Shown piece by piece: positions 39,579 through 42,868 of a stretch of DNA of 64,000 nt (its first letter is position 1; every line of letters starts with the position of its first letter). The notes under the pieces are model-generated. The model ran no database searches, was not told the origin of the DNA, and saw nothing but the letters and a program-made list of their open reading frames with translations. This DNA is from an uncultured Croceitalea sp. (GTDB lineage: Bacteria > Bacteroidota > Bacteroidia > Flavobacteriales > Flavobacteriaceae). The stretch lies in the NCBI RefSeq assembly GCF_947495075.1, contig NZ_CANLXH010000004.1; one strand, 5' to 3'. The position numbers were made by a program, and so were the translations under genes.

Positions 39579-40415
39579 TTATTCTACAAATTGTTTAATG
39601 TCATTAGCATCAGTTAAATCTGGTATATGCTCGGACCTTGGATAACATAACATAGTATTCTCAATTTCACTAACCATTCTTCTAACTGCTTGAGGAAGCT
39701 CCTTTTCATTACGAATAGGGTCAAGAAAACAATTCTGTAAGTAAGGATAAACAACCTCTCCTGAAAAATTAAAGATATTCATACTAACGCGTAAAATACC
39801 ACTGGCATCTCTGTAATCATTAACTTCTTCAAGTTTTGGTTTTTCAATAATACCCTTTAAAAACCCATTAGAATCAATATCCATAAGAGCAAATTTGGAT
39901 ATACGTTCATCAGAAAAGTTTAATCCTTTACTACTATAACTAATTAGTGCGTTAGCAGCGTTTCTATCTTTTTTTAAATCGTTTAGAGCACCAACGGAGT
40001 AAAGATTATCCCCATTACATACAGTAAATCTTTCTTTTAATAAATTAGGGTATTGATCAATACATTGTTGCAATGCATCTGCGGTCCCTAAAGGTTTTTT
40101 CCTGTCTTTTGGCACATGTTGTACAGCTAAATGAATACTGATACCATTATTTTTCTTTAAAAATTCGGAAGTAAAACCTTTAAAGGCAGCATTTTCAGGT
40201 GATGTAATTATATAAACATGTTTAATTTTTGCTGAAATCGCATTTTTAAGTAGATAAAAAAGTAGTGGTTTCTGAGTTTCTCCTAATGGAATTAGTGCTT
40301 TATGTAAGTTACTAGCGATTCTTAAAGTCTCGTTGTCCAAGCCTGAAGATGCCAAGCTACGTTTCATCCTAGATGAAGCCCCACCTGCCATAATAACTAA
40401 GCTTTCATTTTTCAT
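39579..40415 (-). CDS. Sugar-phosphate nucleotidyltransferase
   Basis: IMAGGASSRMK, GTADAL, CNGDNLY, IIEKP, SMNIF. Confidence 0.85.
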   Translation of the reverse strand: MKNESLVIMAGGASSRMKRSLASSGLDNETLRIASNLHKALIPLGETQKPLLFYLLKNAISAKIKHVYIITSPENAAFKGFTSEFLKKNNGISIHLAVQHVPKDRKKPLGTADALQQCIDQYPNLLKERFTVCNGDNLYSVGALNDLKKDRNAANALISYSSKGLNFSDERISKFALMDIDSNGFLKGIIEKPKLEEVNDYRDASGILRVSMNIFNFSGEVVYPYLQNCFLDPIRNEKELPQAVRRMVSEIENTMLCYPRSEHIPDLTDANDIKQFVE

Positions 40416-40417
40416 AA

Positions 40418-41473
40418 TTAGTTTTGTGTTAATTTAACTTCATAAGCAGCAACGGCACCAGAAGCCAAAAATGCATTTATTGTTTTTTCTTTTGAATCAT
40501 CATTAGTTATGGCAACCATGCAACCTCCACCGCCGGAACCAATTATTTTTGTTCCTAAAGCACCCGCTTTAAGGGCAGCATACATCATTTTAGTCATTTT
40601 TTCTGGGGTATTTTTAATTTGGTTTTGTAAAATTTCCTGATGGTCATTCATTAACTTACCTAAAACTGCAGTATCCGGATTTGTTTTTTGCAATTCAACC
40701 CTAGCTCTTTTGGTAATATCATAATTATGAATTGTAGCATACCAATGACTTTGAAATTTGCTTGGCACTAATGCTTTGTATTTATCATAATCAGTTTTTA
40801 TAGAATCTTTTATGTTGTAATTAGGAACGGTTTTTTGGACTGCTTTAATAGCATTTTGGGCATACAATCTTGCATCCTTGAGCACTTGTAAAGTTTGTTT
40901 TGTAATTCCAGACTCTGCCACTACTAAAGTTCCCATTTTAGAACTCAAGGAACTACTTTTTTCCGTTTCGGTATCAATAAACAACAAGCCTCCTTGAGCA
41001 ATCGTGTACTGATCCATTATACCACCAGGTTGGTTAAAATAAGCCGATTCAGCTTGATAAGCTAAAATTCCAATTTCTATATCTGTAACAGGAATAAGTT
41101 TTTCTTGTATCTCCACCAAAAAACGAAGCCAACAGACAACCAAAGCTGAAGAACTTGATAATCCTGCATTTACGGGGATATTACCAGATATTTCAATAGT
41201 ATAACCCTTATCAAAAACAAATCCTTTCTTTTTAAGGATAGCCATAGAAGACCTAAAATAGTCTCCATTTTTAATTTTTATTAAAGAATCGTTTATAGGT
41301 AAGGAAACACTATTGTTTAAATCACGAAGCTTTATTTTAAAATTGTTAGAACTGTTAGGAACTGCTTTTAATTCTATGTATCTGTTAATAGTACCGGCAA
41401 TTACAGGTAGCCCTAAATAATCTTGATGGTCTCCATAAAAACAAATTCTAGCAGGAACTTTTATATGAATCAT
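40418..41473 (-). CDS. GHMP-family (galactokinase-like) sugar kinase
   Basis: PARICFYGDHQDY, PVNAGLSSSSA, GGIMDQ, GSGGGGC. Confidence 0.85.
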   Translation of the reverse strand: MIHIKVPARICFYGDHQDYLGLPVIAGTINRYIELKAVPNSSNNFKIKLRDLNNSVSLPINDSLIKIKNGDYFRSSMAILKKKGFVFDKGYTIEISGNIPVNAGLSSSSALVVCWLRFLVEIQEKLIPVTDIEIGILAYQAESAYFNQPGGIMDQYTIAQGGLLFIDTETEKSSSLSSKMGTLVVAESGITKQTLQVLKDARLYAQNAIKAVQKTVPNYNIKDSIKTDYDKYKALVPSKFQSHWYATIHNYDITKRARVELQKTNPDTAVLGKLMNDHQEILQNQIKNTPEKMTKMMYAALKAGALGTKIIGSGGGGCMVAITNDDSKEKTINAFLASGAVAAYEVKLTQN

Positions 41474-41479
41474 TAAGTT

Positions 41480-42868
41480 CTAGTTTATTATGGAAAGAGG
41501 TTTAGTGTTCTTCCAATTTTCTCTTGTAAAATCTGGAAATGGTTGTGGTGCTCCATCACTTGCAACGGAACGCTCACTTAAAGGTGCTACAGCACTCCAA
41601 AAGCAACCTTCATATACATTTTGGTCTAGAGGTAATCCTTTCTGTAAACATTCAACTATACGATATACCATAATGCCATCCATCCCTCCATGTCCACTAC
41701 CTTTAGCAGCTTGATTAAGTCTTTTATATAATGGATGATCATATTTCTCATAAAGTGTTTCTAATTGCTCTCCCTGTATCCAAGAATGGTGGTCTTTTGT
41801 CACACCTTCAAAGCCTCCTTCAAGAGCAACTCTAGTAGGGAAACCTGCAAGAGTTCCTTTAGTTCCTTGAACAAGGTTTAATCTAGAATATGGCCTTGGA
41901 CTAGTCTCATCCCATTGTACCATTACAGTTTTACCCATTTTAGTTTTAATGATTGATGTATTTAAATCTCCACCATTATAGTCCAATTGATTCCATTTAT
42001 GATTTTCATCATAGTTCTTTTTAGCATAAAGCACTCTGCCTCTAGCTGGAGTCGAAAAAGAAACCAAACTCTTAAATGAGTCTTCTCCCCTACCCAAGTT
42101 CATATATTGTGCGACTGGTCCTAAACCATGAGTTGGATATAAATTTCCATTCCTTTTTGCATAGTGTTTTGTTCGCCAAGAGCCTGTACCTCGCTCCTCC
42201 TCTTGCATTTGCCACCGTAATTCATGAATATAAGCAGCCTCGCCATGTAGAATCTCGCCAATAACACCCTCTCTACACATATTCAAAAACATAAGCTCAT
42301 CTCTACCATAGTTAACATTTTCCAACATCATACAATGCTTTTGTGTACGTTCGGATGTATCTACGATATCCCACATTTCTTGCAAGGAAACTGCAATAGG
42401 AACTTCGACAAATGCATGTGCACCATGCTCCATCGCAGTAATTGCCATCGGTGCATGATTATGCCAATTGGTTGCGATAAAAACAATATCTGGTTTCACG
42501 TCTTTAAGCATTACTCTCCACTGGTTTTCATCTCCTGAGTACTCTGCTATATTTTGGTGTCTACTTTCATTTGTTACTTCACGTACCCATTGGATTTTTT
42601 GCTTAACCAAATCTTCGTAAACATCACAAATAGCTACCACTTCTGTATTTGGTAAAGCTGCAAAAAATTTTAAATGGTCACCTCCACGAGCACCTACACC
42701 TATAAAGGCTGCTCTAATAGTTTCTAGTTTTGGAGCTGAAAAATCTCCCATGTAAATTGATTTAAATGGACGTTCGGATTTTGCTGATAAGTAATTGGGT
42801 AATATGGAAATTGCAGCAGCGGATAATGAGGTTTTCTTTAAAAAGTGACGCCTATTTAAATTTTTCAT
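41480..42868 (-). CDS. Tat-exported Gfo/Idh/MocA protein, GH109 (alpha-N-acetylgalactosaminidase-like)
   Basis: NRRHFLK Tat motif, IGVGARG, MMLENVNY, YPTHG, GHGGMD. Confidence 0.85.
   Translation of the reverse strand: MKNLNRRHFLKKTSLSAAAISILPNYLSAKSERPFKSIYMGDFSAPKLETIRAAFIGVGARGGDHLKFFAALPNTEVVAICDVYEDLVKQKIQWVREVTNESRHQNIAEYSGDENQWRVMLKDVKPDIVFIATNWHNHAPMAITAMEHGAHAFVEVPIAVSLQEMWDIVDTSERTQKHCMMLENVNYGRDELMFLNMCREGVIGEILHGEAAYIHELRWQMQEEERGTGSWRTKHYAKRNGNLYPTHGLGPVAQYMNLGRGEDSFKSLVSFSTPARGRVLYAKKNYDENHKWNQLDYNGGDLNTSIIKTKMGKTVMVQWDETSPRPYSRLNLVQGTKGTLAGFPTRVALEGGFEGVTKDHHSWIQGEQLETLYEKYDHPLYKRLNQAAKGSGHGGMDGIMVYRIVECLQKGLPLDQNVYEGCFWSAVAPLSERSVASDGAPQPFPDFTRENWKNTKPLSIIN

Follow-up and report, generated by a model that had tools for sequence, protein, structure and literature searches.

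Mucins, glycosaminoglycans, glycolipids and many bacterial surface glycans contain N-acetylgalactosamine (GalNAc) as a major sugar. In human salvage GalNAc is converted by GALK2 (structures 2a2c/2a2d) into GalNAc-1-phosphate (GalNAc-1-P) and then by AGX1/UAP1 into uridine diphosphate (UDP)-GalNAc, and the bifidobacterial galacto-N-biose/lacto-N-biose (GNB/LNB) pathway comprises NahK, the uridylyltransferase LnpC and the 4-epimerase LnpD. For other sugars, Fkp of Bacteroides fragilis is a bifunctional L-fucokinase/GDP-fucose pyrophosphorylase, and AmgK-MurU recycles N-acetylmuramic acid (MurNAc) and N-acetylglucosamine (GlcNAc). NahK, which is cited for the bifidobacterial pathway (PMC11992087, PMC6264712), uses GlcNAc and GalNAc equally (PMC11992087). 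By analogy, the published system closest to the locus described here appears to be operon BT4240-43 of B. thetaiotaomicron, that is, operon 1 of the polysaccharide utilization locus (PUL) BT4240-50, which encodes the GalNAc-1-kinase BT4240, the GH2 β-1,3-galactosidase BT4241, the major facilitator superfamily (MFS) protein BT4242 and the GH109 α-N-acetylgalactosaminidase BT4243 (PMC11992087). BT4240 is an APH/NahK-family kinase that phosphorylates O1, prefers GalNAc ~275-fold over GlcNAc and was called critical for GalNAc metabolism, and the fate of GalNAc-1-P was left undefined in that study of 2025 (PMC11992087). Here, in a 64,000-nucleotide stretch (the window) from an uncultured Croceitalea sp. 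(contig NZ_CANLXH010000004.1), a marine flavobacterium with a genome of 3.73 Mb, three adjacent genes encoding a GH109 glycosidase, a GHMP kinase and a nucleotidyltransferase (NTase) were analysed. No description of a bacterial GHMP-type 1-kinase for GalNAc or other N-acetylhexosamines (HexNAc), or of a GH109-kinase-NTase trio, was found in the searchable literature.

The three genes all lie on the minus strand, and an open reading frame (ORF) check reproduced their coordinates exactly (Table 1). The best reading of the trio is that it probably serves the route from GalNAc via GalNAc-1-P to UDP-GalNAc, with the sugar suggested by the gene neighbours and both the nucleotide and the fate of the product presumptive. 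That the kinase and the NTase form a pair of anomeric kinase and nucleoside diphosphate (NDP)-sugar pyrophosphorylase is very likely. In the proposed mechanism, GH109, exported to the periplasm via the twin-arginine translocation (Tat) system, would free terminal α- or β-GalNAc by NAD+-dependent oxidation/elimination from imported or envelope-derived glycans, and the free sugar would cross the inner membrane via a transporter encoded elsewhere in the genome. The galactokinase-like kinase would then phosphorylate the anomeric C1 to yield GalNAc-1-P, which the NTase, of RmlA/GalU fold, would join with a nucleoside triphosphate, most likely uridine triphosphate (UTP), to form UDP-GalNAc. Finally, a GalE-type 4-epimerase of the genome could interconvert UDP-GalNAc and UDP-GlcNAc, and the product would either be used directly in envelope glycans or be drained via GlcNAc-1-P to central metabolism. 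An earlier note on this DNA had outlined periplasmic release, C1 phosphorylation and NDP activation, steps that are now backed by comparative evidence; its assignment of the kinase type has been dropped (see below), and its claim of recycling rather than catabolism reaches too far, as the B. thetaiotaomicron analogue feeds catabolism (PMC11992087) and an NTase plus a 4-epimerase fit either fate.

The GH109 protein harbours the Pfam domains GFO_IDH_MocA (PF01408; 2.6e-15) and Glyco_hydro_109_C (PF21252; 8.1e-58), with a G-V-G-A-R-G loop at residues 57-62 in the Rossmann NAD-binding domain. It matched Akkermansia muciniphila AmGH109A (PDB 6t2b) at an E value of 1e-166 over residues 28-461, and the α-N-acetylgalactosaminidase of Elizabethkingia (PDB 2ixa) at 7e-75. 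The catalytic residues proposed for AmGH109A, as relayed in a passage of PMC10755693 citing Teze et al. 2020, are Tyr226, His259 and His404, the last of these in a GGHGG loop; Tyr213, His247 and His393 of the window protein align with these three residues, and its loop around His393 reads G-S-G-H-G-G. The protein thus appears to be a near-orthologue of the structurally solved AmGH109A in which the catalytic Tyr/His/His are kept. For the marine flavobacterium Arenibacter latericius, a GH109 that shares 66% identity with the Akkermansia protein has been described as an α-N-acetylgalactosaminidase (PMC3721217), and this enzyme together with the AmGH109A match points to α- or β-GalNAc glycosides as the probable substrates. 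The window gene is the sole GH109 found by searching the genome. As for export, a twin-arginine motif (N-R-R-H-F-L-K, residues 5-11) followed by a hydrophobic stretch to L-S-A was read at the N-terminus, in agreement with the Tat signal that had been noted for this gene.

The kinase carries GHMP_kinases_N (PF00288) and GHMP_kinases_C (PF08544). At 100-111 bits it scored below all of the galactokinase equivalog cut-offs (227-443 bits; NCBIfam TIGR00131, PRK03817 and PRK05322), and it was also far under every curated cut-off for the mevalonate kinase and heptose kinase equivalogs. In its AlphaFold2 model (predicted local distance difference test (pLDDT) 93; 32 relatives in the alignment), galactokinases were the best fold matches, with template modelling (TM) scores of 0.86-0.88 at ~20% identity. 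Invariant across the 32 relatives are R9, G14-D-H-Q-D-Y19 and G150-G-x-M-D-Q155, the GHMP motif II P-x-x-x-G-L-S-S-S-A (100-110, including the S106-S109 P-loop) and the GHMP motif III G-S-G-G-G-G (312-318). The galactokinase motifs R-x4-G-E-H-x-D-Y and G-I-M-D-Q contain the signature for sugar binding and the Arg/Asp pair that catalyses C1 phosphorylation. The model and the conserved residues therefore suggest a galactokinase fold with the catalytic Arg/Asp of anomeric sugar kinases. The Pfam family GalKase_gal_bdg was unreported for the window kinase and matched its relatives, weakly in some and significantly in another. A broad search at E<=1e-10 returned ~3,800 proteins, other GHMP kinases included.

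Elsewhere in the genome, a canonical galK (302 bits, above the cut-off) adjoins galT, and the window kinase is 22% identical to its product, the two aligning on R-x4-G-E-H-T-D-Y and G-I-M-D-Q. The window kinase would thus be a second anomeric kinase, presumably with another substrate, and its identity as the canonical Leloir GalK was ruled out on its sub-cut-off scores, the true galK elsewhere and the low identity. Database annotations of its relatives include ‘galactokinase' and mevalonate kinase; the latter was rejected on the invariant galactokinase Arg, the G-D-H-x-D-Y and G-x-M-D-Q motifs and the galactokinases among the top folds. The ‘GALK2 type' proposed in the earlier note did not hold up either: human GALK2 (PDB 2a2c) matched residues 3-157 only (5.4e-11), ranking under archaeal galactokinases and mevalonate kinases. 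In addition, the kinase has no PF01636 (APH) match and is not a member of the NahK/BT4240 family, though it may act alike. It is best described as a putative separate branch of galactokinase-like GHMP kinases. Among distant relatives (32-35% identity), fusions to other domains were observed (P0295 of 531 aa and P0285 of 615 aa; loci L088/L089), one with an N-terminal Macro domain and another with an N-terminal NagB/6-phosphogluconolactonase-like domain, adjoining GH3.

The NTase harbours NTP_transferase (PF00483; 1.7e-14). Its best equivalog score, 43 bits, was below all of the cut-offs for GlmU, RmlA, GlgC and archaeal GlmU (292-537 bits; NCBIfam). Its AlphaFold2 model (pLDDT 89) matched GalU, RmlA and the N-terminal domains of GlgC at TM scores of ~0.7. 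Among 31 relatives, the segments G-G-A-S-S-R-M-K (11-18), H-K (38-39), Q99, G-T-A-D-A (110-114), N-G-D-N (134-137), E-K-P (191-193) and E-K-E-L-P (237-241) are invariant. By what is known of RmlA, the G-G-x-x-x-R loop, the catalytic Lys, the Mg site at G-D-N and the sugar-phosphate site at E-K-P can be assigned among them. Motifs and modelled fold together suggest a sugar-1-phosphate nucleotidylyltransferase of the RmlA/GalU type, and its nucleotide would most likely be UTP, a choice guided by pathway logic.

The linkage of the three genes was determined across genomes. Among 80 genome loci found via the kinase, the NTase follows the kinase in 77 and GH109 precedes it in 73, in the same order and on the same strand, and in an independent ORF clustering the trio was adjacent in 78 of 87 kinase-bearing loci. 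The outer flanks of the trio fall into at least two unrelated contexts, one with valyl-tRNA synthetase (ValRS) plus a fatty-acid hydroxylase and the other with a 2-oxoglutarate oxygenase plus other genes, the trio being the only constant part across the differing flanks. Loci with a kinase of 39-45% identity likewise keep the three genes together, in three arrangements: (i) kinase-NTase-GH109, adjoining a GalE-like epimerase; (ii) GH109-kinase-NTase; (iii) GH109 divergent from kinase-NTase. Since the linkage persists through rearrangement, selection rather than inherited synteny is suggested. The earlier note had called for such a synteny survey, with a lack of co-occurrence elsewhere to count against its route; the survey found the trio together in most loci and in rearranged orders too. 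Over the 80 loci (L001-L080), GH109 is more conserved (66-89% identity) than the kinase (53-74%) or the NTase (49-79%). Two individual loci were recorded separately. On a Croceivirga chromosome from a metagenome-assembled genome (MAG) (L025, ~6000-9900), the pair occurs in the ValRS-to-hydroxylase context and GH109 was not detected between ValRS and the kinase, which could reflect loss or a pseudogene. At L108 (G295:C1, 4051-10387), a 74%-identical GH109 orthologue has no kinase pair beside it; its neighbours are GH97, two 3-keto-disaccharide hydrolase genes and another Gfo/Idh/MocA oxidoreductase, a cluster that looks like one for oxidative glycoside cleavage.

A sample of 300 genomes from the phylum yielded 13 further genomes with a kinase homologue (31-39% identity), and in 11 of the 12 distant Bacteroidota loci fetched the NTase adjoins the kinase. 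Four of these distant loci have SSF sodium:solute symporters beside the pair. Its other neighbours there are an MFS transporter together with a NagB/PIG-L protein, a GalE-like epimerase together with a GH2 β-galactosidase, and GH123, GH20, GH35 and GH3; overall, a GalE-like epimerase adjoins the pair in two loci. GH123 (Pfam GH123_N), a family of β-N-acetylgalactosaminidases, occupies the position equivalent to that of GH109 in one distant lineage. Moreover, kinase and NTase also occur fused in a single chain of 630-670 aa, with the kinase domain N-terminal to the NTase domain; in one such protein the C-terminal half is 40% identical to the entire window NTase and shares the unusual insertion that follows its glycine loop. 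One fusion locus reads SSF, fusion, CutC and GH20, and its genes overlap. The kinase and the NTase thus appear to be an older, single functional unit. Three to four unrelated HexNAc-releasing glycosidase families, plus β-galactosidases, transporters and an epimerase, converge on this pair, and the gene content around it appears to be that expected for the use of Gal-GalNAc/HexNAc glycans. Two of the distant settings have features of their own. In Flavobacteriales MAGs (L102-L104, 8895-9602), the CutC-family gene lies between the fusion and the GH20 hexosaminidase with overlapping gene ends. At L099 (G229:C8, 8129-12612), a pyruvate-formate-lyase-like glycyl radical enzyme, a radical-SAM activase and an ACT-domain 2-hydroxyacid dehydrogenase are encoded directly upstream of the pair on the same strand, with SSF genes on both sides.

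The rest of the host genome was searched for related functions. A GalE 4-epimerase above its cut-off is present, so that either fate of the product, recycling or catabolism, would be possible, and GH20 is present as well. No APH/NahK-family protein (PF01636) was found in the genome, which is consistent with non-orthologous replacement of a NahK-type kinase by the GHMP kinase. Cell-wall recycling of the AmgK-MurU type was considered and set aside, given the genome without an APH-family protein and with nothing that ties GH109 to MurNAc.

Several observations weigh against a GalNAc-to-UDP-GalNAc role of the trio. In the phylum sample, five genomes had a 69-74% identical GH109, and in four of them no kinase homologue was found at E<=1e-30, in searches that scored only a few candidates per genome and in which ‘not found' does not equal absent. 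These kinase-less GH109 orthologues sit in unrelated contexts, those of L108-L110 being GH97 plus 3-keto-disaccharide hydrolases, a tRNA synthetase and a sulfatase, and for these three of the four genes (L108-L110 of L108-L111) no NahK-type kinase was found among the annotated neighbours. From the other side, GH109 lies within 7 kb of the kinase in none of the 12 distant loci, including the 11 with the NTase. No clear orthologue of the pair-linked SSF symporter was found in the host genome, the matches there being generic ones at 26-28% identity; the GH2 and GH35 β-galactosidases beside the pair would fit galactose too; and, bearing on UTP, the G-T-A-D-A motif and the top sequence matches of the NTase are common to ADP-glucose pyrophosphorylases (GlgC-like). 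As GH109 is separable from the pair, its link to the pair would be lineage-specific and recurrent, not obligate. Such separability, in both directions, is also what would be expected if GH109 were a mere syntenic neighbour and the kinase and NTase supplied an activated sugar for lipid or envelope-glycan synthesis, for example together with the downstream fatty-acid hydroxylase, whose gene lies 50 nt downstream with no terminator-like site between and which accompanies the trio in 51 of the 80 loci. We regard this as very improbable, since the GH109 linkage is kept in three gene orders and through a full change of the outer flanks, different glycosidases hold the GH109 position in other lineages, and in several genomes one to three genes intervene between the trio and the hydroxylase, which is absent in more distant ones. 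The intervening genes and this absence also led us to reject the hydroxylase as a fourth member of the cassette.

The identity of the sugar admits two other accounts. There is a small but real chance that the pair consists of a broad or GlcNAc-preferring HexNAc 1-kinase and a UDP-HexNAc pyrophosphorylase for general amino-sugar scavenging (chitin or peptidoglycan fragments), with GH109 as one of several feeders. The pair or the fusion is found beside GH20 hexosaminidases, a GH3 and a NagB/PIG-L protein in other lineages, GH20 frees GlcNAc as well as GalNAc, and the host genome itself has GH20 and no AmgK-type (APH) kinase; yet a β-N-acetylgalactosaminidase family, GH123, takes the place of GH109 in another lineage, and the GalE-like epimerase beside the pair in two loci would be needless for GlcNAc. 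Also in favour of this account, bifidobacterial NahK takes both sugars equally (PMC11992087); against it, the nearest characterised relatives of the partner GH109 are GalNAc-specific (PMC3721217). The other account, for which we see a slimmer chance, is that the pair activates a neutral galacto-configured sugar such as galactose, as a pyrophosphorylase-type alternative to the Leloir pathway, and that the GH109 link reflects mixed Gal/GalNAc glycans. It would agree with the galactokinase fold and motifs of the kinase, with the sources that annotate its relatives as galactokinases and with the GH2/GH35 β-galactosidases and GalE-like epimerase that flank the pair in some genomes. However, a canonical galK-galT is already present, the kinase is far below every galactokinase equivalog cut-off, and the commonest glycosidases adjacent to the pair (GH109, GH123 and GH20) are HexNAc-releasing. 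Conversion of GalNAc into UDP-GalNAc by the trio is thus the reading that we retain.

The spacing within the trio, 6 nt between GH109 and the kinase (41474-41479) and 2 nt between the kinase and the NTase (40416-40417), agrees with the gaps given in the earlier note, and the three genes may well be co-transcribed. The hairpin listed in Table 1, the sole terminator-like site within 38000-43300, sits between the stop of the upstream lipoprotein gene (43017-45419) and the GH109 start, which suggests that the trio begins its own unit. The same scan found no terminator-like site in the 50-nt gap between the NTase and the fatty-acid hydroxylase gene. A sigma-70 scan was uninformative at the locus (25 sites found vs 21 expected), and inspection by eye of the region 5′ of GH109 revealed no exact copy of the Bacteroidota TAnnTTTG box.

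Table 1. Features of the GH109-kinase-NTase locus in the window.
Feature	Position	Strand	Size or basis
GH109, predicted periplasmic α/β-N-acetylgalactosaminidase, NAD-dependent	41480..42868	-	462 aa; Pfam and PDB matches, residues
Predicted Tat signal peptide of GH109, residues 1-29	42782..42868	-	read from sequence by motif
Galactokinase-like GHMP anomeric sugar kinase, putative separate branch; predicted GalNAc (HexNAc) 1-kinase	40418..41473	-	351 aa
Sugar-1-phosphate NTase, putative separate branch; predicted UDP-GalNAc (NDP-HexNAc) pyrophosphorylase	39579..40415	-	278 aa
Terminator-like hairpin 3′ of the upstream lipoprotein gene; putative 5′ boundary of the trio	42956..42992	-	consensus match only

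The trio stands alone among housekeeping and envelope genes, outside any PUL. On one flank are RsfS, FtsH, a LUD-domain protein, CdsA, Psd and the fatty-acid hydroxylase, and on the opposite one a spondin/LTD lipoprotein, a LytTR regulator and DUF5777. Domain annotation found no SusC/D and no transporter gene within ~6 kb on either side of the trio, and no SusC or SusD domains in the annotated flanks of related loci, that is, none of the adjacent SusC/SusD pairs by which a PUL is recognised. The absence of SusC/D and transporters had been pointed out before and is borne out here; as regards transporters, it is a property of this lineage and not a general trait, as SSF or MFS genes accompany the pair in other lineages. 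The hydroxylase gene (38278-39528, minus strand) is convergent with cdsA and psd and encodes a 416-aa protein whose fatty-acid hydroxylase domain is confined to residues 83-217, with a weak OlsE-like match; its ~200 C-terminal residues are without a domain assignment.

How Bacteroidota handle GalNAc beyond C1 phosphorylation is unsettled, the B. thetaiotaomicron study ending at GalNAc-1-P (PMC11992087). The cassette adds two predicted enzyme families that would together complete the path leading from a glycan to a nucleotide sugar, the kinase being unrelated to the NahK-type enzymes known so far. If this is true, a rule would be at hand for annotating, in hundreds of marine genomes, the genes that now bear the names ‘GHMP kinase', ‘mevalonate kinase' or ‘glucose-1-phosphate thymidylyltransferase'; the chemo-enzymatic synthesis of UDP-HexNAc analogues would gain two new enzymes; and there would be a handle on amino-sugar scavenging in abundant marine flavobacteria. 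It is conceivable, if doubtful, that the NTase and GalE represent the missing downstream step of GalNAc-1-P metabolism in Bacteroidota and relatives, a pyrophosphorylase-type ‘Leloir-like' route from GalNAc-1-P via UDP-GalNAc to UDP-GlcNAc. Small-genome marine flavobacteria would by this route feed the scavenged amino sugar into peptidoglycan and lipopolysaccharide precursors, sparing fixed nitrogen as well as the GlmS/GlmM/GlmU steps of de novo synthesis, and the kinase would be the first bacterial HexNAc 1-kinase of the GHMP type.

Compared with BT4240-43, the window locus is alike in that a predicted periplasmic GH109 N-acetylgalactosaminidase is encoded together with a presumed cytoplasmic anomeric kinase for the freed sugar, and the GHMP pair of other lineages also adjoins GH2 and MFS/SSF genes. 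Unlike BT4240, an APH kinase, the window kinase is a non-homologous GHMP protein; the cassette has a dedicated NTase where the B. thetaiotaomicron locus has none; and the latter is part of a SusC/D PUL that also encodes an M60-like protease, whereas the window trio stands by itself. What appears to be new relative to BT4240-43 is therefore the non-homologous GHMP kinase and the explicit NTase step. The proposed route also resembles the GNB/LNB pathway in its course from GalNAc via the C1-phosphate to UDP-GalNAc and, by epimerisation, UDP-GlcNAc, but in that pathway the kinase is of the APH type, the sugar-1-phosphate comes partly from a phosphorylase instead of GH109, and UDP is transferred by GalT-type exchange with UDP-glucose instead of by a pyrophosphorylase. 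The human route, like the one proposed here, employs a GHMP kinase and then a pyrophosphorylase; the window kinase is, however, no GALK2 orthologue, and the window NTase has a predicted small RmlA/GalU fold and not the eukaryotic UAP fold. From Fkp and AmgK-MurU the window pair differs in its presumed sugar and in its enzyme subfamilies, AmgK being APH-type, and the domain order of Fkp is opposite to that of the kinase-first fusions found here. Relatives of the window pair nevertheless occur, like Fkp, as single fusion proteins, and the pair would share with both systems the principle by which an anomeric kinase and an NDP-sugar pyrophosphorylase salvage a freed sugar directly to the nucleotide sugar.

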